This document shows positions 6,083-12,838 of a stretch of 32,000 nt of DNA, in pieces (the stretch's first letter is position 1; every line of letters begins with the position of its first letter). Below the pieces are notes generated by a model. It saw only the letters and a list, made by a program, of their open reading frames with translations. It was not told the DNA's origin and did no database searches. A program made the position numbers and the translations under genes. This DNA comes from Candidatus Brocadia sp. (GTDB lineage Bacteria > Planctomycetota > Brocadiia > Brocadiales > Brocadiaceae): the NCBI GenBank assembly GCA_021650915.1, contig CP091279.1, positions 1,680,001 to 1,712,000 on the forward strand, read 5' to 3'.

Positions 6083-7270
6083 TTACAAGACCCTTGGTAA
6101 TATCTTTTTGATTCGCCTGGCTGCTTCTCTGGTGTTTTTAATACTGGGCACCAGGGCGAACCGTACATACCCTTCGCCAGGGTTTAATCCGGTTTCTGTT
6201 TTATCACTGATCCATGCACCAGGAGTCGTTACTATAGCAATTTCAGGCGAAAGGAGTTTCTGTGCAAAGCTGACAGAGGTCATTCCCTCCGGCACCTTTT
6301 GCCAGAGATAAATTGTTGCTTCCGGGGTACAGTCAGGAAGTTTGATACGACGGAACGCATCCACCAGCAAATCCCTTTTGATCCGGTATTCGGCCTTCAT
6401 CTTTTCCACATGCGTTTCGTCACTGAGGGCGGCAATCGCTCCATCCTGGATAAACGTGGCCGTACCCGAATCAATGTTGGTCTTCACCTTTTTAAATATG
6501 TCTACAATCCGCTTGTCACCTGCCACCCAGCCCACACGGTAACACGTCATGGCGCTTCTTTTAGAGAAGGAGTTAAAGACAATGACACCTTCCTTGGTGA
6601 CCTCCAGGATACTGTGGGGTGGTTCGCCAAAGTAAATTTCACTGTAGGCCTCATCGGAGGCGATAATGATGTTATGCCTTTTTCCAAATTCCACGACCTC
6701 TTTTAAATACGATAGCGGCGCTACGGCTCCAGAGGGGCTATTCGGGTAATTGATCCACATGATCTTTGTATTCTTGCAGACTTCTTCAGGGATCGATTTC
6801 AGGTCGATCAGAAATTTGTTTTCTGCCAGGAGCGGCACATAGTAAGGAATCCCTTCAGCAAACAAAGTCCCTCGTGTATAGGGTGGATAGCCTGGTGTAG
6901 GGATAATCACAGAATCGCCGGGATTAACGATTCCCTCCGGAAAATTGAACACCGCTTCTTTTGAGCCAATGGTGGAAGAAATTTCTGTAGCTGGGTCCAT
7001 CTGGATGCCAAACCTCTTGTGAATCCACTGGGCTATGGACTGACGAAATTCAGGGGCGCCTATATAACTCGGATACCCTGAAGATTTGCGGTTGGTTAGC
7101 CCTTTCTGGGTAGCCTTGCGTACAACATCCGGTGTCGGTACCGTAGGATCGCCCACTCCGAAATCAATCGGGGTAATTCCCAGGGACTTTAACTTTTCAA
7201 CTTCCTTGTCTACTTCTGCAAAGGCGTATGCCCCAATGGACTGTAGCCTCTTTGACGCCGTAATCTCCAT
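6083..7270 (-). CDS. Class I/II PLP aminotransferase, probably LL-diaminopimelate aminotransferase (DapL type)
   Basis: Contains RLQSIGAYAFAEVDKEVEKLKSLGITPIDFGVGDPTVPTP and NSFSKRSAMTCYRVGW (PLP-lysine motif). I chose the ATG at 7270 (MEITASKRLQ) with the upstream gggaaagga. The ORF-track start at 7333 adds 21 unlikely residues. Confidence 0.7.
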   Translation of the reverse strand: MEITASKRLQSIGAYAFAEVDKEVEKLKSLGITPIDFGVGDPTVPTPDVVRKATQKGLTNRKSSGYPSYIGAPEFRQSIAQWIHKRFGIQMDPATEISSTIGSKEAVFNFPEGIVNPGDSVIIPTPGYPPYTRGTLFAEGIPYYVPLLAENKFLIDLKSIPEEVCKNTKIMWINYPNSPSGAVAPLSYLKEVVEFGKRHNIIIASDEAYSEIYFGEPPHSILEVTKEGVIVFNSFSKRSAMTCYRVGWVAGDKRIVDIFKKVKTNIDSGTATFIQDGAIAALSDETHVEKMKAEYRIKRDLLVDAFRRIKLPDCTPEATIYLWQKVPEGMTSVSFAQKLLSPEIAIVTTPGAWISDKTETGLNPGEGYVRFALVPSIKNTREAARRIKKILPRVL

Positions 7271-7358
7271 GGATATCGTTCCTTTCCCTTTCTTCCTTTC
7301 TTCAACTTCGCAGGATGCCCTGCGGTAATTCACCGTACAGAAATTTCACCCCTCAAAA

Positions 7359-7409
7359 TCCCCTCGTAAACTGGGGGGACACACTTTTTATCCCCCGTTT
7401 ACGGGAGGA
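7359..7409. repeat. Inverted pair of 'ccccNcgtaaacNgggg' hairpin units
   Basis: tcccctcgtaaactgggggga (7359-7379) and tcccccgtttacgggagga (7391-7409) are near reverse complements of each other. Related cccc..gggg units occur at 26494-26509 and 26536-26552. Confidence 0.5.
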
Positions 7410-7449
7410 ACACAGGGGGTAAAAGCCACCGAAGGTCTAAGGTAATACG

Positions 7450-7950
7450 CTATTTTTTTGATGGGTCGGTAATTGCCGGCCTTACCGGACTCCTTTTGGC
7501 GGTCATCTCCCTGATCTCTATTTCAAGCACATTGGTCTTATTCAGCATAGCATCAGTAAAGGGAACTTTAGGATTTTGAGGCGCATACTTTTCGGCAAGC
7601 TTCCGGAGGGCGTAATTCTTTGCATCAACTTCGGAAAGGATTGTGATGGTACCAAAAAGCACAACCGACCGGTATGCAACCGAGGAGGCACAGGTGGGTT
7701 GCTTTACTATTACCTCTTTTACTTCCTCCACCTCAAAGCAGACATTCGGATTGCTCCTGATATTCTGTAATTTTCGTCCTTCCTGTGCACAATGGAGAAA
7801 TATTCGGGAGCTTTCTCTATCGTACGTGTAATTCATGGGTGTAATATACGGAATCCCGTCAGCGCACGTCCCCAGCCTTCCCACCATAGCCGTCAGCAGA
7901 ATCTCTTCGATCTCGTCCCCGTCGGTTATTTCTTTGTCTTTCCTTCTCAC
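7450..7950 (-). CDS. Pyridoxamine 5'-phosphate oxidase family (FMN-binding split-barrel) protein
   Basis: The N-terminus MRRKDKEITDGDEIEEILLTAMVGRLGTCADGIPYITPMNYTY is typical of the Pyridox_ox_2/NimA-like family. GTG start at 7950, 8 nt after the upstream stop. Confidence 0.75.
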   Translation of the reverse strand: MRRKDKEITDGDEIEEILLTAMVGRLGTCADGIPYITPMNYTYDRESSRIFLHCAQEGRKLQNIRSNPNVCFEVEEVKEVIVKQPTCASSVAYRSVVLFGTITILSEVDAKNYALRKLAEKYAPQNPKVPFTDAMLNKTNVLEIEIREMTAKRSPVRPAITDPSKK

Positions 7951-7958
7951 GGCACGGA

Positions 7959-8975
7959 CTATATTTTTCTTCCCACTGCCTCGGCAACCGGCTTCAGTTC
8001 TTCCATGAGCGCTTCAAAGGCCTCAAGGGTAATCGTCTGCGGCCCATCGACAAACGATTTTTCAGGCTCCGGATGCGTCTCGATTAACAAACCGTCCGCA
8101 CCCACGGCGACAGAGCCTTTGGACATCGGATTTACCAGACTTCTCTTTCCGGTGCCGTGGCTCGGATCCACGATAATGGGCAGGTGCGTCATTTCCCTGA
8201 GTTGCGGAACAATACTCAGCGATAGCGTAAACCGGGTATGCGTTTCAAACGTCCTGATACCTCTTTCACAGAGGATAACATTGGGGTTATTCTGCGCCAG
8301 AATATATTCTGCAGCCAGGAGGAATTCTTCAACCGTTGCAGACATTCCCCGTTTTAAAATCACCGGTTTTCCGGCCTCACCCACGGCGCGCAGGAGCAGG
8401 AAATTCTGCATATTACGGGTCCCGATCTGCAGGATATCGGAATATTTACTGACTAACGTTACATGTTCCGGGGTAAGCACTTCGGTAACGATGGGTAAAC
8501 CAGATGCCTCACGGGCATGCGCCAGATGCACCAAGCCTTCTTCCCTAAGACCCTGGAAGGTATAAGGATTACTGCGGGGTTTGAATGCCCCGCCCCGTAG
8601 TGCAGTTCCGCCGGCATCTCTCACCCTTTTCGCGATTTCAACGATCTGCTCCTTGCTTTCAATGGCGCACGGTCCGGCAATAACGGCCACTTCTTCTCCG
8701 CCGATTTTTTTCCCATTCATGAGATGAATGATCGTTCTAAAATCCTTTCCTTCCTTGCTGGCTAATTTATAGGGCGCAAGGATAGGGACAGATTTCTCCA
8801 CACCGGGCATAATATCCCAGAAGTCAGCAGGCAATACCCGTTCGTCCCCGATAATCGCAATTACGTTCCGGTTCGTTCCCTGCAAGACCACCCCTTTCAA
8901 ACCAGCCTTTTCTATCCTCTCAAGGACATGATCGATATCCTTTTTTGTAGATTCGGCCTTCATTACAATAATCAT
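7959..8975 (-). CDS. aroF: 3-deoxy-7-phosphoheptulonate (DAHP) synthase, type I-beta with an N-terminal regulatory domain
   Basis: The 338-aa product has an N-terminal domain of about 70 aa (MIIVMKAESTKKDIDHVLERIEKAGL). It then shows IAGPCAIES, GGAFKPRSNPYTFQGL and IVDPSHGTG, as in Thermotoga-type DAHPS. ATG at 8975 with the SD ggtggaggtg. Confidence 0.9.
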   Translation of the reverse strand: MIIVMKAESTKKDIDHVLERIEKAGLKGVVLQGTNRNVIAIIGDERVLPADFWDIMPGVEKSVPILAPYKLASKEGKDFRTIIHLMNGKKIGGEEVAVIAGPCAIESKEQIVEIAKRVRDAGGTALRGGAFKPRSNPYTFQGLREEGLVHLAHAREASGLPIVTEVLTPEHVTLVSKYSDILQIGTRNMQNFLLLRAVGEAGKPVILKRGMSATVEEFLLAAEYILAQNNPNVILCERGIRTFETHTRFTLSLSIVPQLREMTHLPIIVDPSHGTGKRSLVNPMSKGSVAVGADGLLIETHPEPEKSFVDGPQTITLEAFEALMEELKPVAEAVGRKI

Positions 8976-9004
8976 GAGCTACACCTCCACCAAATATTGC
9001 GGGC

Positions 9005-9036
9005 AAAAAAAAACCCTAAAACCAATGGTTTCAGGG
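9005..9036 (-). terminator. Intrinsic terminator 29 nt upstream of the aroF start codon (attenuator terminator)
   Basis: The minus strand reads CCCTGAAACC-ATT-GGTTTTAGGG, a 10-bp stem with one G-U pair, followed by nine T residues (9013-9005). Confidence 0.8.
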
Positions 9037-9074
9037 CAATATATCAACATCAATGAATTGAATAATATCGAACC

Positions 9075-9167
9075 CTAAGACCCCCACTGTGGACGATCGT
9101 ATCGAAAATAATACAATATCCAGGAAAACGTCTCGCTTTTGTTATTCGCGGGGATACGCATAAGCAT
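9075..9167 (-). CDS. Candidate 30-aa leader peptide rich in aromatic codons
   Basis: My translation is ATG CTT ATG CGT ... TGG GGG TCT TAG = MLMRIPANNKSETFSWILYYFRYDRPQWGS. Seven of the last 17 residues are F, W or Y. The stop codon lies inside the putative anti-terminator segment. No obvious SD precedes it. Confidence 0.5.
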   Translation of the reverse strand: MLMRIPANNKSETFSWILYYFRYDRPQWGS

Positions 9168-9203
9168 CGTGGATAAAATGTATATAAAAATTACAGACGA
9201 TAA

Positions 9204-9231
9204 ATTTTACCTCACGCCGTTACATTGTCAA
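9204..9231 (-). promoter_or_regulatory. Sigma70-like promoter for the aroF leader
   Basis: The minus strand carries TTGACA (9231-9226), a 16-nt spacer and TAAAAT (9209-9204). The predicted TSS is near 9197. Confidence 0.55.
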
Positions 9232-9340
9232 GTCTAATTTTTTCATGCCTTGTTCTGGCGGGAAACGTTTATCTCACCTTAAAGAGAAACAAGGGAGGGG
9301 ATGACGGATTGCCGTGGTACGACATCCTCCATCATTCCGT

Positions 9341-9790
9341 CTAGTTGGTTGGTAGTTGCACGATTTCCAGCCAATAATTTGCCATTGTCTTTATGATCGC
9401 AACCAAGCCTTCAAATGACACCGGCTTTGTTATATACGAATTAGAACCCAGTTCATAAGTACGCACGACATCCTCCTCCGCCTTTGAAGTCGTTACAATC
9501 ACTACCGGAATGCGCCTCAAATCAGGGTCTGCCTTAATTTCAGTAAGCGCCTCACGCCCGTCCTTCCCGGGCATATTCAAATCCAGCAGGATAAGGCCGG
9601 GACGCGGCGAGTTTTTGACGTCCGCGTACTTTCCGCGATGGTGCAGGTAGTCGATCAATTCCTCACCATTCTCAATAAAACGCAGGTCATTCAGTAATCG
9701 CGCCTCTTTAAAGGCATCCTTTGCCATAAAGCGATCATCCGAATCGTCATCCGCCAGCAGGATGGTGATTGATTCTTTCGTTCCATGCAT
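9341..9790 (-). CDS. Stand-alone receiver-domain response regulator (Rcp1-like), paralog A
   Basis: The 149-aa product has ILLADDDSDD, the phospho-acceptor region GLILLDLNMP, VVIVTTSKAEED and ITKP. ATG at 9790 with the SD aggaga. Confidence 0.9.
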   Translation of the reverse strand: MHGTKESITILLADDDSDDRFMAKDAFKEARLLNDLRFIENGEELIDYLHHRGKYADVKNSPRPGLILLDLNMPGKDGREALTEIKADPDLRRIPVVIVTTSKAEEDVVRTYELGSNSYITKPVSFEGLVAIIKTMANYWLEIVQLPTN

Positions 9791-9804
9791 GATTTTCTCC
9801 TGTG

Positions 9805-10245
9805 CTACAGAAGCACGATTTCCAGCCAGTATTTCGACAGGGCTTTCATGATCGCAACCAGAGATTCAAATGACACCGGTTTGGTGATATAGGAATTGGA
9901 ACCCAAGTCATAGGTGCGAATGATATCCTCCTCAGCCTTTGAAGTCGTTAAAATCACAACCGGAATGCGCCGCAAATCAGGATCTGTCTTAATTTCAGCA
10001 AGCGCTTCACGCCCGTCTTTCCTGGGCATGTTCAGATCCAGCAGAATAAGCCCAGGCCGCGGCGCATCCGCCGGATCAGCGAACCTGCCCCGATGGTAAA
10101 GATAGTCCAGCAATTCCTCACCATCCACCACAAAGCGCAGGTCGTTGATCAGCGTGGCCTCCCTAAATGCCTCTTTCGTCATAAAGCGATCATCCGGGTC
10201 GTCGTCGGCCATCAGAATGGTAATGGGCTTTTTCCTCTCACTCAT
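9805..10245 (-). CDS. Stand-alone receiver-domain response regulator (Rcp1-like), paralog B
   Basis: The 146-aa product matches paralog A at 109 of 146 positions in my gap-free hand alignment. It has the strong SD aaggagga. Its start overlaps the kinase stop by 8 nt. Confidence 0.9.
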   Translation of the reverse strand: MSERKKPITILMADDDPDDRFMTKEAFREATLINDLRFVVDGEELLDYLYHRGRFADPADAPRPGLILLDLNMPRKDGREALAEIKTDPDLRRIPVVILTTSKAEEDIIRTYDLGSNSYITKPVSFESLVAIMKALSKYWLEIVLL

Positions 10246-11884
10246 AGTTTCCTCCTTTTGATTGTCTCATAGGCAGGGTTATGATAAACGCGGCTCCCTT
10301 CCCGGGTGCGCTTTTTGCCTCAATCTTTCCGTCGTGACGTTCGGCAATCTTTTTGCAAATAGATAAACCGATGCCCGTCCCCTCGTATTCATCACGCCCA
10401 TGCAACCGCTGAAATACTCCGAAGATCCGGTCGGCATACTTCTCGTCAAATCCGATACCATTGTCCTCGAAGGTAATCTGGCACACCGGACGATGGGCAT
10501 TTCCGTCGGAACCATTCTCCTGATCATCAAGCATACAGGCCCGTATGTCCACAACCGGTGATCCCCCTTTCCGTTGAAATTTCAACGCATTGCCGATGAG
10601 GTTCTGAAATAATTGGCGCATCTGCAAGGGATCAGCATCAATGATCGGCAAATCCCCCAGTTTTACCGTCCCCCCCGTCTGTTCGATTTTAATTTCCAGG
10701 TCAGACAATACTTCCCTTGCTACCTGGGCGAGATCAACCTGGGTAAAGGGCTGAGCCTTTGTCCTCAGCCTTGAAAACACCAACAGATCCGTTATGAGCG
10801 TCTTCATGCGCTGGGAGGCGTTTTGCATCCTTACGATATATTCCTTCCCCTCACTGCTCATCGTTTCACCGCATTTATCAAGCAAGCGATCACCGAAGGC
10901 CATAACCTTTCGCAATGGTTCCTGCAGATCATGCGACACGATATAGGCAAACTGCTCCAGTTCTGAATTAGAACGGCTGAGTTCCTTCGTTTTTTGTTCC
11001 AGAGCGCGTTCTACCCGTTTTCGTTCGGCAATTTCCAGCGCCATCTTTTGGTTCGCAAGCACCAGTTGGCCGGTACGTTCCTCTGCCTGATTCCGGTAGT
11101 CGCGTAACCGCCCCAGCATGTGATTGAACGCCTGCGCAAGGTCAGCTATTTCATCATGGCTCGTAATTCTGATATGTTGCTCAAGGATACCCTCAGATAT
11201 TTTTTGCGTCGCTATATTGAGGTCTCTGATCGGCAAGGTAATTCTTCTTGTCAAAAAGAGGGTAACGGCAATACCCACGACAACGCAGATAATGGTAAAA
11301 TATCCTGTGGACACAATGATTTGACGGATTCGCTTCCGCAGGCCATCCTTAGTTAACCCCAATTGGACGTATCCGATAATTTTCTGACGCGTTGTTCCGT
11401 TATCATCTCCTAATATCTCAGGAGAATCACTATCAATGGCGCTTGCAACCGGGGCAACGATGTCAATATACCGGAGACCATCCTTTTTGTTGACGAACTC
11501 CTCATGCAGCATTTGTAAGGACCGATAGGATTTCTTATAATGATGCAGGGAGGGCGTTTTTATCTCGGACTGAAAACTTTCACAAATCAGTTTCCGTTTA
11601 TTCTTGTACAGGCACACATAGGCAACATCCGCATCCACGGCAAGACTTTTGACGATTTGCCTAATGGCGTCTTTGTCTTCAGTGTAAATGCCATATTCAC
11701 TGTTCTGAGACATCATAGCGGCAACGCTCATTCCATGATTCAGAAGGTTACGGTACGAGTGAGAAATTTGCGCTCGAATGAGGAAGATACTGATTCCCAC
11801 TGCGGTAACCAGGATTACGCCAATCGTCAAAAAATTAAATTTCGTGGCAAGGTTTAAACGTTTTTTTTCTCGTGCGACGTGCAT
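10238..11884 (-). CDS. Membrane sensor histidine kinase (2 TM, HAMP, coiled coil, HisKA, HATPase_c)
   Basis: The TM segments are FNFLTIGVILVTAVGISIFLI and VSTGYFTIICVVVGIAVTLFL. HAMP is seen at LPIRDLNIATQKISEG..DEIADLAQAFNHM and the H-box at FAYIVSHDLQEPLRKV. The N, G1 and G2 boxes are NLIGNALKF, FEDNGIGF and GTGIGLSICKKI. Confidence 0.9.
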   Translation of the reverse strand: MHVAREKKRLNLATKFNFLTIGVILVTAVGISIFLIRAQISHSYRNLLNHGMSVAAMMSQNSEYGIYTEDKDAIRQIVKSLAVDADVAYVCLYKNKRKLICESFQSEIKTPSLHHYKKSYRSLQMLHEEFVNKKDGLRYIDIVAPVASAIDSDSPEILGDDNGTTRQKIIGYVQLGLTKDGLRKRIRQIIVSTGYFTIICVVVGIAVTLFLTRRITLPIRDLNIATQKISEGILEQHIRITSHDEIADLAQAFNHMLGRLRDYRNQAEERTGQLVLANQKMALEIAERKRVERALEQKTKELSRSNSELEQFAYIVSHDLQEPLRKVMAFGDRLLDKCGETMSSEGKEYIVRMQNASQRMKTLITDLLVFSRLRTKAQPFTQVDLAQVAREVLSDLEIKIEQTGGTVKLGDLPIIDADPLQMRQLFQNLIGNALKFQRKGGSPVVDIRACMLDDQENGSDGNAHRPVCQITFEDNGIGFDEKYADRIFGVFQRLHGRDEYEGTGIGLSICKKIAERHDGKIEAKSAPGKGAAFIITLPMRQSKGGNYE

Positions 11885-11887
11885 TCG

Positions 11888-12838
11888 CTACTCCTTAAAA
11901 ACCTGGTGGGCATGGTCGATTATTTCCTCAGAGATTTTTATCTTCATATGCCTTGCTGTCCGCAGATTCAGGAAATACCGTGCCGTACGGGGAGAGACAA
12001 TCGGCGCTGACTTTGGTTCATTCCCCTGCAGTATCTTCCATGTAATCTCTCCGCCCTGCATTCCAATATCCGTATAATCCCAACCGAGCGAGTAGAGGGC
12101 GCCCGCCTCTACCCAACTGGGACTCAGACCGCAAAAAGGGATATTGTTCCTGAATGAAAAGAGCAGAATTTGCTTTGCCGTCTGGGCATTGAACACCATG
12201 CTATCTGGTATTCCCCATAATACGTCACTATTTTTCGCTATATTTTTTAGCGCATTTGGCAGATCCTTCGGATTATTCACCTCCCGGGCATAGAGAATCA
12301 ATCCCATTTTTTTCGCTACCCCTTCAGCTATGACAATCTTTTCTTCATTTTCTTTCGGATTATAAATGACCCCTATCCTTCTGACTTCAGGAACTATTCG
12401 TCTCAGAAAAGAAAACTCTGTCTCTACGGGAAATTCGAGAATCACCCCCATTGCGTTCCTTGTATTCATCAGTTTCTTATTCTTCAAAATCATGCTGACG
12501 ACTATGGGTGTGTCAGTAACGTTATCCATCACCGCATCTGCAGCTTTATTTCCCACCGCAAATATTAAATCTGCCTTTTCTTCTTTCAGTTGCTGCATGA
12601 CCTGCATTGGTTTCAATGCAGCATCATCCAGAACGTAGGTATGGTAATTTACCTTTGCTCGCTGCCGGCTGAGATACCTTTGAAACCCTGCAAAGACCTC
12701 CTGGTAAGGCACGGCATCGTTGCATAAAATCGTCACCGTCTTGACGTCTTTTGCGTAAACAGCGCCTGCCATGATGCACACCGCAAAGAGTGCAATCAGA
12801 GCTCGCTTCGCAATGCTTATTGTTTTACACGCACCCAT
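11888..12838 (-). CDS. Periplasmic ABC-type substrate-binding protein (ABC_sub_bind family), first gene of the two-component operon
   Basis: Signal peptide MGACKTISIAKRALIALFAVCIMAGAVYA. It also shows RRIGVIYNPKENEE and GALYSLGWDYTDIGMQGGE..ILQG, typical of this family. The stop lies 3 nt before the kinase ATG. Confidence 0.75.
   Translation of the reverse strand: MGACKTISIAKRALIALFAVCIMAGAVYAKDVKTVTILCNDAVPYQEVFAGFQRYLSRQRAKVNYHTYVLDDAALKPMQVMQQLKEEKADLIFAVGNKAADAVMDNVTDTPIVVSMILKNKKLMNTRNAMGVILEFPVETEFSFLRRIVPEVRRIGVIYNPKENEEKIVIAEGVAKKMGLILYAREVNNPKDLPNALKNIAKNSDVLWGIPDSMVFNAQTAKQILLFSFRNNIPFCGLSPSWVEAGALYSLGWDYTDIGMQGGEITWKILQGNEPKSAPIVSPRTARYFLNLRTARHMKIKISEEIIDHAHQVFKE

Follow-up and report, generated by a model that had tools for sequence, protein, structure and literature searches.

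A putative Tyr/Phe-sensing transcription attenuator precedes the DAHP synthase gene aroF in anammox Brocadiaceae

Here, we describe a leader upstream of aroF in a 32,000-nucleotide stretch of the genome of Candidatus Brocadia sp. (GCA_021650915.1, contig CP091279.1, positions 1,680,001 to 1,712,000; this whole stretch is called the window, and positions are counted from its first letter). We consider it likely that this leader is a ribosome-mediated transcription attenuator that senses tyrosine and phenylalanine and governs an operon in which aroF is followed by genes for a PNPOx-like protein and an aminotransferase in anammox Brocadiaceae. The elements, pairing energies, geometry, and conservation presented below are direct observations. 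A sequence-only reading of the window had placed a promoter, a mini-ORF, a stop-codon segment, and a terminator on the minus strand ahead of aroF, and all four are present where it had put them (Table 1).

Table 1. Features of the aroF leader and operon, in positions of the window
Feature	Position	Strand	Details
sigma-70-type promoter	9204..9231	-	TTGACA 9231-9226, 16-nt spacer, TAAAAT 9209-9204
Leader-peptide mini-ORF, 30 codons + TAG	9075..9167	-	MLMRIPANNKSETFSWILYYFRYDRPQWGS
Candidate segment 1, codons 5-7	9148..9155	-	AUCCCCGC; partner in MFE folds GUGGGGGU, 9087-9080
Regulatory codon cluster	9099..9128	-	F14 (9128-9126), W16, Y19, Y20, F21, Y23 (9101-9099)
Segment 2, anti-terminator 5' arm	9072..9085	-	GGGGGTCTTAGGGT; stop TAG 9077-9075 inside
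A/U-rich spacer hairpin, segment 2 to segment 3	9044..9071	-	from folding
Segment 3, terminator 5' arm and anti-terminator 3' arm	9027..9037	-	GCCCTGAAACC
Segment 4 and T9 tract	9005..9023	-	GGTTTTAGGGT (9023-9013), T9 (9013-9005); intrinsic terminator with segment 3
aroF, type I-beta DAHP synthase with N-terminal ferredoxin-like regulatory domain	7959..8975	-	NF006421 469 bits; TIGR01361; PF18152 + PF00793
PNPOx/Nim-like protein, 166 aa	7950-7450	-	
Class I/II aminotransferase	about 7270-6083	-	

The promoter matches the consensus at 11 of 12 positions and is the top promoter-like site in a 5-kb scan (7000-12000). Transcription would start near 9197, giving a promoter-to-terminator transcript of ~190 nt. 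As the sequence-only reading had counted, 7 of the final 17 residues of MLMRIPANNKSETFSWILYYFRYDRPQWGS are F, W, or Y, and codons 14-23 alone hold six aromatic codons in ten. The same reading was also correct that no Shine-Dalgarno sequence precedes the mini-ORF in the window, and the ORF is missing from the gene calls of three public assemblies for this organism, whose genotype is present in at least 80 index blocks of public assemblies. The mini-ORF stop lies 99 nt from the aroF start, with the termination point ~70 nt past the stop and a gap of 29 nt between the end of the T9 tract and the aroF ATG (8975).

In the mechanism that we propose, a ribosome would translate the 30-codon leader ORF on a transcript begun near 9197. 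With ample charged Tyr- and Phe-tRNA it would reach the TAG and, since the stop codon lies inside segment 2, mask that segment, so that segments 3 and 4 could pair and polymerase would terminate at T9. With Tyr or Phe scarce, the ribosome would instead stall in the F-S-W-I-L-Y-Y-F-R-Y cluster with its leading edge short of segment 2, leaving this segment free to pair with segment 3 upon its emergence; no terminator would then form, and transcription would read through into aroF. The transcription start, leader-ORF translation, ribosome stalling, and the effect on regulation are predictions. Masked folding agrees with the earlier proposal that a stalled ribosome frees segment 2 and that one at the stop codon covers it: an A site at codons 14-23 permits nine segment 2:3 pairs before segment 4 exists, and none can form once the A site has reached W28 or the stop codon.

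Two competing helices are predicted. The terminator hairpin (9037-9013) consists of 11 pairs, 5 of them G-C, closed by a 3-nt loop and followed by T9 (-14.9 kcal/mol), and shows significant covariation across relatives, with 6 pairs altered on both sides, 93.9% of cells paired, and none of 500 shuffles as good. The segment-2 stretch GGGGGTCTTAGGG (9085-9073) is, as noted from the sequence before, a 9/10 copy of the terminator 3' arm that pairs with the 5' arm at 9 of 10 positions, one of these pairs being G-U. This anti-terminator duplex (-14.0 kcal/mol) is stronger than 98.5% of shuffled upstream regions (P = 0.015) and reaches P ≤ 0.03 against shuffles in seven of eight Brocadiaceae loci and likewise in L006, L012, L014, L017, L029, L031, L137, and L139. 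It is the consensus structure returned by RNAalifold, and the leader as a whole is more stable than its shuffles (z = -2.8). Taken locally, the energies of the two helices are comparable, and in the full-length transcript the terminator is favored (-50.5 versus -42.9 kcal/mol), a thermodynamic preference from which it follows that a switch must be kinetic.

The sequence-only reading had suggested looking for joint change of the mini-ORF and the duplicated arm among relatives. The mini-ORF, the terminator, and the stop-bearing arm copy do recur together in Brocadiales relatives and in L006, whose leader DNA cannot be aligned, but column covariation of the anti-terminator is not above that of shuffles (12-sequence alignment, fixed register). 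The outer half of the duplex, TAGGG:CCCTA, is invariant, and the inner half is register-shifted in L163, L167, and L006. In L163 and L006, the altered terminator is matched by segment-2 changes, to GGCGG...TAGGG and GGC.CTCAGGG. A matrix of arm swaps tells own from foreign partners between unrelated lineages only; it fails to do so within Brocadiales, since a G-rich segment 2 will pair with many different GC-rich arms. The predicted anti-terminator is supported by pairing energy and by recurrence, also in unrelated lineages, without column covariation. The comparison strongly supports the trp/pheA-style attenuation put forward earlier.

A mini-ORF with the core F-Y-Y-F-x-Y precedes aroF in 12 of 14 related Brocadiales/Planctomycetota loci and is still present at 61% aroF identity, a divergence at which the DNA can no longer be aligned. 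In 11 of the 12 ORF-bearing loci the stop codon falls within or adjoins the anti-terminator arm. Segment 2 spans the stop codon (-6 to +6) in eight Brocadiaceae loci and likewise in L161, L163, L165, and L167, the exceptions being the degenerate L166 and L162. The leader peptides read MKHYAVFYYFKYYRGGS in L001, MKYYTIFYYFRYYKRGWS in L082, MKWFSVFCYFSYYYKRGRL in L002, MKFYFFKYYKRGWS in L165 (Wujingus), and MYFKYFSIQIRCS in L161 (Kuenenia sp.); those of L003, L163, and L167 end in ...LYSVFYYFRYYSKEEGC, ...SYYYPFNYFPGGGRS, and ...FFTFPYYSFNCFAGGGGS, and that of L006, the GC-rich Planctomycetota locus at 61% aroF identity, ends in ...WRWYFGFYYFTFHGKGSQGA. In all nine, a terminator lies downstream and the stop is in or just after the copy of the terminator 3' arm. 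The peptides are 11 to about 47 residues long, and their conservation is confined to the aromatic core and the RNA-dictated C terminus.

In the codon alignment, the conserved peptide core is Y-Y-F-R-Y, extending across loci as F/x-Y-Y-F-x-Y, and its synonymous differences are of the TAT/TAC, TTT/TTC, and CGA/AGA type, with the residues kept. Indels between core and stop are multiples of 3, unlike those in the spacer. Both features are a signature of coding sequence. In a strain variant, we observe no difference in the 222-nt leader versus eight in the 143 nt upstream of it. A promoter of the form TTGACA-16/17-TA(A/G)A(C/A)T precedes the leader in L001, L081, L082, L003, L002, L004, L165, and L006. 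Ribosome-binding signals are seen in L161 (GGGAG, 7 nt upstream) and L006 (AGGA), and in L165 the start codon is about 7 nt past the -10 hexamer. In L166 the ORF stops 14 nt ahead of the degenerate segment 2, and no leader element was found in L168 (Anammoxibacter).

Tyr and Phe are the best reading of the effector amino acids. The earlier suggestion that all three aromatic amino acids are sensed is not supported by the comparison: Tyr and Phe codons are conserved, and Trp codons are not, being missing in L001, L081, L003, L161, and L163. In addition, W28 lies within segment 2, so a ribosome stalled there would mask the anti-terminator.

The design looks like one of three segments, not four. 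The role of 9155-9148 as a segment 1 is uncertain, since its pairing with 9087-9080 in the MFE folds overlaps only three anti-terminator pairs and its conservation in relatives is not evident; folding the leader as far as segment 3 gave no consistent partner for a 1:2 helix across relatives. Furthermore, the L165 transcript probably begins at the leader ATG, which leaves no space for a segment 1. The spacer hairpin (-5.9 kcal/mol; 3% of shuffles are equally stable) was rejected as a conserved pause element and is probably dispensable, since in most relatives its stability is not significant.

The gene order aroF, PNPOx-like gene, aminotransferase gene is also found in the Kuenenia sp., Loosdrechtia, Wujingus, and Brocadiia loci. 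The gene upstream of the leader varies among relatives and the leader remains with aroF. For this reason, and given the promoter that intervenes, we rejected an assignment of the terminator to the response-regulator operon upstream. Thermotoga-type DAHP synthases with an N-terminal ferredoxin-like domain are feedback inhibited by Tyr and Phe, and the attenuator would place transcription under the control of these two amino acids as well.

The proposed logic is that of the Escherichia coli trp and pheA leaders (trpL and pheL), in which regulatory codons are combined with a terminator and with an anti-terminator that competes for the terminator 5' arm, the two helices being mutually exclusive. 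In trpL, about 70 nt separate the stop codon from the termination point, a distance similar to that in the Brocadiaceae leader. Unlike these E. coli leaders, which govern terminal branches, the Brocadiaceae leader precedes the common first step, has its stop codon inside the anti-terminator arm, and has no evident conserved 1:2 pause/anti-anti-terminator helix.

Two precedents concern aroF itself; they are compared here by their published descriptions only. The AroF of Corynebacterium glutamicum belongs to a DAHP synthase subclass other than the type I-beta with a ferredoxin-like domain. A leader peptide, aroR, upstream of aroF in Corynebacterium had been mentioned in the sequence-only reading, and PMC11802643 (citing Neshat et al. 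2014) and PMC4046766 (an earlier prediction) bear this out. As described there, aroR is likewise a short ORF with Phe/Tyr codons (Phe-Tyr-Phe) before a DAHP synthase gene, at the same pathway step, and ribosome stalling raises read-through, as we propose for the Brocadiaceae leader. The Brocadiaceae core (F-Y-Y-F-x-Y-Y) is longer and Tyr-dominated, and the Corynebacterium element is reported to respond to Phe and not to Tyr. Its host is an actinomycetote, whereas ours is a planctomycetote, and a sequence relationship was neither detected nor expected. The other precedent, uORFC-13-1 of Acholeplasma, is a computational prediction only (PMC8632094): an upstream ORF directly before an intrinsic terminator and ahead of aroF, for which attenuation through the decoding speed of aromatic codons was proposed, as here. 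It is confined to Acholeplasma and environmental sequences, and its U run encodes at least one Phe, compared with the Tyr/Phe block of the Brocadiaceae leader. The mechanism is classical and has precedents at aroF, and the Brocadiaceae leader is unannotated and outside Rfam. In the openly readable literature, we found no earlier attenuator described for Planctomycetes or anammox bacteria and no earlier description of Tyr-codon leaders.

It is unlikely that the terminator is controlled by a trans-acting factor or a ligand (a TRAP- or PyrR-type protein, a T-box-like tRNA contact, or a riboswitch), with the aromatic ORF being incidental. The missing Shine-Dalgarno sequence in the window would fit such control, as would the terminator without a clear aromatic ORF in L162 (Loosdrechtia), and the about 110 nt of extra leader upstream of the mini-ORF in L001, L081, L082, L002, and L004 could harbor another structure. 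Yet conservation lies in the run of aromatic codons, in its frame, and in the position of its stop, and the region ahead of the ORF varies between about 0 nt in L165 and about 110 nt, which leaves no aptamer-sized conserved element. Neither the window nor 17 related loci gave a match to any Rfam family at gathering score, and riboswitches, T-boxes, and known leader families (Trp_leader, Phe_leader, His_leader, etc.) were rejected on this basis. At a relaxed threshold, cmscan returned terminator-driven small RNA matches below cut-off, such as NsiR1 with 25.8 bits, where the gathering score is 39. This weak match and the ~190-nt unit with its own promoter and strong terminator would also suit a functional small peptide of aromatic or hydrophobic character or a stand-alone small RNA whose proximity to aroF is mere gene order, and attenuator RNAs and leader peptides that act in trans are known from Sinorhizobium (PMC7298713, PMC6614838). 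We regard this as quite improbable, given that the peptide varies so widely in length and is unconserved in sequence beyond its core and C terminus, and that the unit always sits directly upstream of aroF, whichever gene lies on its other side; a trans role would in any case supplement attenuation and not substitute for it. A covariance model of the element matched only 9005-9095 in the window, and no second copy was found there.

An effect of the leader ORF on aroF translation or mRNA stability, through coupling, re-initiation, or an RNase site, and not on termination, appears very unlikely. Leader genes near structural genes have been proposed to raise translation, Planctomycetes included (PMC4833913), but the distances discussed in that work are 10-16 nt, versus the 99 nt found here; a canonical hairpin with T9 stands between the ORF and aroF, and aroF carries its own strong Shine-Dalgarno sequence, GGAGG (8988-8984). 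The remaining explanation, a chance juxtaposition of a promoter, a random ORF, and a terminator, is effectively refuted by the comparative data and has next to no probability left. Single parts of the arrangement are indeed unexceptional: the 10-mer copy alone is no rarer than expected (four one-mismatch matches versus 2.4 expected), and among 522 small ORFs of the window, 3 reach the same aromatic content of five in eight residues. The entire arrangement, however, is kept across Brocadiales and in L006, and at least five aromatics in eight residues are encoded in the sense direction in 36 of 153 upstream regions, compared with 2 of 153 in antisense and 0 of 153 after shuffling. Ribosome-mediated attenuation in response to Tyr and Phe is the reading that we prefer.

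On a broader scale, we lean, with confidence only somewhat above even, toward viewing the leader as one member of a class of Tyr/Phe leader-peptide attenuators on genes for type I-beta DAHP synthases with a ferredoxin-like domain. This class would be large, uncatalogued, and probably polyphyletic and would span at least six phyla (Planctomycetota including anammox bacteria, Chloroflexota, Desulfobacterota, Poribacteria, Actinomycetota, and CPR/Patescibacteria), and with its Brocadiaceae member, Planctomycetes would have their first described ribosome-mediated attenuator, of a minimal three-segment form with the stop codon built into the anti-terminator and with a leader ORF that is apparently leaderless in some relatives. 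Tyr/Phe leader control of the first committed aromatic step would then be far commoner than the two published cases suggest, with standard gene calling and Rfam both overlooking such leader-peptide attenuators. To our knowledge, pure culture of anammox bacteria is not possible and hardly any work exists on their gene regulation; the leader offers the first concrete, testable cis-regulatory mechanism proposed for amino acid biosynthesis in these organisms. It would imply a coupling of transcription to translation that is tight enough for attenuation in very slow-growing Planctomycetota, and the leader-to-aroF ratio of read coverage in existing anammox metatranscriptomes could indicate aromatic amino acid limitation in situ.

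We consider it likely, from its elements, geometry and comparison with relatives, that the aroF leader is a ribosome-mediated attenuator of the trp/pheA type, as the sequence-only reading had proposed. The promoter, aromatic mini-ORF, segment 2 (the anti-terminator 5' arm, which carries the mini-ORF stop codon) and terminator of that reading were all recovered on the minus strand by promoter and terminator scans and an ORF list. The gene next to the single-domain regulator is indeed aroF, encoding a type I-beta DAHP synthase with an N-terminal ferredoxin-like domain (PF18152+PF00793), and segment 2 pairs with the terminator 5' arm (segment 3) at 9/10 positions, one of them G-U. From the stop codon to the end of the T-tract is 70 nt. 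Since 3 of the 522 small ORFs within the window are equally aromatic and the 10-mer is not rare there by itself, the single-sequence case is suggestive only, and the argument's weight rests on relatives. An Rfam search of the window matched no family, and gene calling passed over the mini-ORF in three public assemblies that share this genotype.

Elements of the aroF leader and neighboring genes in the window
Feature	Position	Strand	Basis or remark
Intergenic region	9341 (response-regulator stop) to 8975 (aroF ATG)	minus	Sequence reading
Promoter TTGACA-16-TAAAAT	9231-9204	minus	11/12 matches; top site of 5-kb scan
Mini-ORF MLMRIPANNKSETFSWILYYFRYDRPQWGS	9167-9075	minus	ORF list
Candidate segment 1 AUCCCCGC	9155-9148	minus	Codons 5-7; pairs with GUGGGGGU (9087-9080)
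Segment 2 GGGGGTCTTAGGG	9085-9073	minus	Holds TAG stop codon at 9077-9075
Terminator GCCCTGAAACC-ATT-GGTTTTAGGGT, then T9	9037-9005	minus	11 pairs; top terminator of 5-kb scan
PNPOx/Nim-like gene and aminotransferase	6083-7950	minus	Pyridox_ox_2; annotated DapC/LL-DAP-like
Single-domain response regulator (149 aa)	9790-9341	minus	Tandem, closely similar to the next
Single-domain response regulator (146 aa)	10245-9805	minus
Histidine kinase	11884-10238	minus	Stop overlaps start of the first regulator (10245) by 8 nt
ORF (316 aa)	12838-11888	minus	Precedes kinase and regulators

Protein similarity searches of genome and metagenome collections yielded 160 loci, to which exact-protein look-up added 8 Brocadiales loci. 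By its DAHP synthase the window belongs to Candidatus Brocadiaceae (anammox Planctomycetota). Relatives with 88-93% AroF identity are Brocadiaceae MAGs, and those with names include Wujingus, Loosdrechtia, Kuenenia sp., and Scalindua. Upstream of relatives' aroF, the mini-ORF has the core F/x-Y-Y-F-x-Y(-Y), and the promoter is kept as TTGACA-16/17-TA(A/G)A(C/A)T; the leader DNA of L006 is otherwise unalignable with that of the window. Synonymous differences inside the core (TAT/TAC, TTT/TTC, CGA/AGA in the codon alignment) and core-to-stop length differences of 0, 3 or 6 nt are signatures of reading-frame constraint, while indels in the spacer do not keep to multiples of three. In a strain variant whose AroF protein is identical (L169:236-600 versus window 8976-9340), the 222-nt leader has 0 substitutions, against 8 over the 143 nt that precede the predicted transcription start. 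Loosdrechtia (L162:860-1200, 89% AroF identity) shows no clear aromatic mini-ORF and no recognizable segment 2 and keeps the terminator (GCCCTAAAACG..GTTTTAGGG plus T7); the sensor may have been lost or remodeled in this lineage. The L166 ORF ends 14 nt ahead of a degenerate segment 2, Scalindua rubra has a weak leader peptide (…NSNFVF), and no such leader was seen in the Anammoxibacter aroF upstream region.

Predicted leader peptides upstream of relatives' aroF and peptide types in the broader set
Locus or group	Peptide
L001	MKHYAVFYYFKYYRGGS
L081	MKYYAVFYYFRYYRGGS
L082	MKYYTIFYYFRYYKRGWS
L003	...LYSVFYYFRYYSKEEGC
L002/L004	MKWFSVFCYFSYYYKRG(R/W)L
L165 (Wujingus)	MKFYFFKYYKRGWS
L161 (Kuenenia sp.)	MYFKYFSIQIRCS
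L166	MLNCLRFFYYF
L163 (71-72% clade)	...SYYYPFNYFPGGGRS
L167 (71-72% clade)	...FFTFPYYSFNCFAGGGGS
L006 (GC-rich Planctomycetota, 61% aroF identity)	...WRWYFGFYYFTFHGKGSQGA
Anaerolineales	YFFYYYFWW
Syntrophobacterales and other deltaproteobacteria	FYYYAYFYP..GM
Poribacteria	YYRSFYAW
Separate groups	FWFWFGYRPG; SYSYWFT
	FYFYFYFYF
Peribacteria	GFWFYFY

In five loci (L001 [2735-2850], L081, L082, L002 and L004), promoter and mini-ORF are separated by about 110 nt of additional leader. In L001 this opens at the predicted start with a tiny ORF, ATGCTTAATTTGCTATAA (MLNLL*), whose resemblance to the starts of the L166 (ATGCTTAATTGT…) and window (ATGCTTATG…) ORFs suggests an insertion splitting an ancestral leader ORF.

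The gene upstream varies, being a response regulator in the window, a divergent TPR/PMT_2-like membrane protein in L001, L003, and L166, and glutamate synthase, a flagellar gene or an acyltransferase elsewhere. Of the 15 loci extending far enough downstream, 13 have a PNPOx-like gene (159-173 aa) and then a class I/II aminotransferase after aroF; Scalindua rubra (L164) is without the PNPOx-like gene, and L006 has neither. This combination argues that the leader belongs to aroF. The aminotransferase might be an aromatic or prephenate aminotransferase. As no terminator was detected in the window between the aroF promoter and the regulator operon, transcripts reading through from that operon would reach the attenuator too.

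A 12-sequence alignment gives the terminator helix strong support: 93.9% of cells are paired and six pairs have changed on both sides (0/500 shuffles as good). The anti-terminator duplex is close in energy to the terminator (-14.0 versus -14.9 kcal/mol in the window, -16.0 versus -12.0 in L001, and -23.2 versus -21.4 in L006), in most loci outdoes dinucleotide-shuffled upstream sequence, and is the RNAalifold consensus fold of close relatives. Its 5' arm spans the stop codon in Brocadiaceae loci with an intact segment 2, L166 and L162 being the exceptions, and stops just short of it in L006. Where the inner part of the terminator differs, segment 2 has changed to match and a small bulge is present, as in L163 (terminator GCCCTATCCGCC/GGCGGATAGGGC, segment 2 GGCGGTCTTAGGG) and in L006 (CCCTGAGGCC/GGCTTCAGGG, GGCTCTCAGGG), but in a fixed column register anti-terminator covariation is not above shuffles. 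In an arm-swap matrix, a locus's own partner stood out from foreign ones only when unrelated lineages were compared. By the strictest covariation test the anti-terminator is thus a candidate feature, although the loci taken together look as a terminator/anti-terminator switch would predict; strict covariation of the anti-terminator is the one testable defining feature of an attenuator that was not found.

In masked folding, a ribosome with its A site anywhere in codons 14-23 leaves 9 pairs between segments 2 and 3 before segment 4 (the terminator 3' arm) is transcribed, and one at W28 (codon 28) or the stop codon covers segment 2, which is then unable to pair. The complete transcript, whose two folds the earlier reading had left for comparison, always prefers the terminator form (-50.5 versus -42.9 kcal/mol), so control must be kinetic, as in trp; the ribosome's position on the leader codons would decide it. 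The candidate segment 1 helix overlaps only three anti-terminator pairs in the window and has no clear counterpart among relatives. In Wujingus (L165:1029-1110), about 7 nt separate the conserved promoter's -10 hexamer (TAAACT) from the leader ATG downstream; the transcript thus probably starts at the start codon, leaving no room for segment 1, and the peptide is probably translated from a leaderless transcript. The family looks like a three-segment attenuator. The caveat that the window's mini-ORF has no SD is correct, yet not fatal. Family members differ in their SD: Kuenenia sp. has GGGAG, L006 has AGGA, and Wujingus is probably leaderless.

Sensing of all three aromatic amino acids, as first proposed, is overstated. 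Tyr (49) and Phe (36) codons dominate the leader peptides; the 9 Trp codons are scattered and missing from several, and W28 lies within segment 2. We conclude from the codons and the place of W28 that the element probably senses Tyr and Phe, and not all three. Thermotoga-type DAHP synthases carrying this N-terminal regulatory domain are feedback-inhibited by Tyr/Phe, which such sensing would match.

Among loci with at least 150 nt upstream (n=153), an ORF with at least five aromatics in 8 residues within 250 nt precedes the DAHP synthase in 36 on the sense strand, versus 2 antisense and 0 shuffled. A downstream terminator is paired with an ORF of at least four aromatics in 8 residues in 31 loci, and several leaders hold highly significant anti-terminators within the 3' part of the ORF; no Rfam family matched at gathering score in the 17 related loci searched. 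Aromatic-rich mini-ORFs with terminators lie in the 250 nt ahead of the same DAHP synthase class in L012, L014, L017, L020, L029, L031, L032, L039, L048, L066, L106, L111, L123, L138, L139, and L159. Such leaders span Poribacteria, Anaerolineales (MDQATNSKKYFFYYYFWWEE...), Syntrophobacterales and other deltaproteobacteria (…FYYYAYFYPIEGEAPGM…), Peribacteria, and others. In deltaproteobacterial leaders (L020, L032, L039, L048, L088, L106, L137, and L140), a common motif at the C-terminus, ..G(A/N)(P/S)GM(L/H/R)R.., falls on a terminator-arm-like RNA segment (GCCGTGGGC), so the peptide tail appears dictated by RNA pairing; its Brocadiaceae equivalent is (K)RG(G/W)S.

Corynebacterium glutamicum aroR-aroF is an established case of leader-peptide attenuation at a DAHP synthase gene, with a peptide that carries Phe-Tyr-Phe and a response to limiting Phe (PMC11802643, PMC4046766), and a uORF with terminator (uORFC-13-1) is predicted upstream of Acholeplasma aroF (PMC8632094). 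In the openly readable literature, we found no report of a leader attenuator in Planctomycetes or anammox bacteria and no survey of broad aroF leader distribution. The mechanism is ordinary; the host lineage and the stop codon built into the anti-terminator are noteworthy, and the Brocadiaceae leader reveals a widespread, unannotated class.
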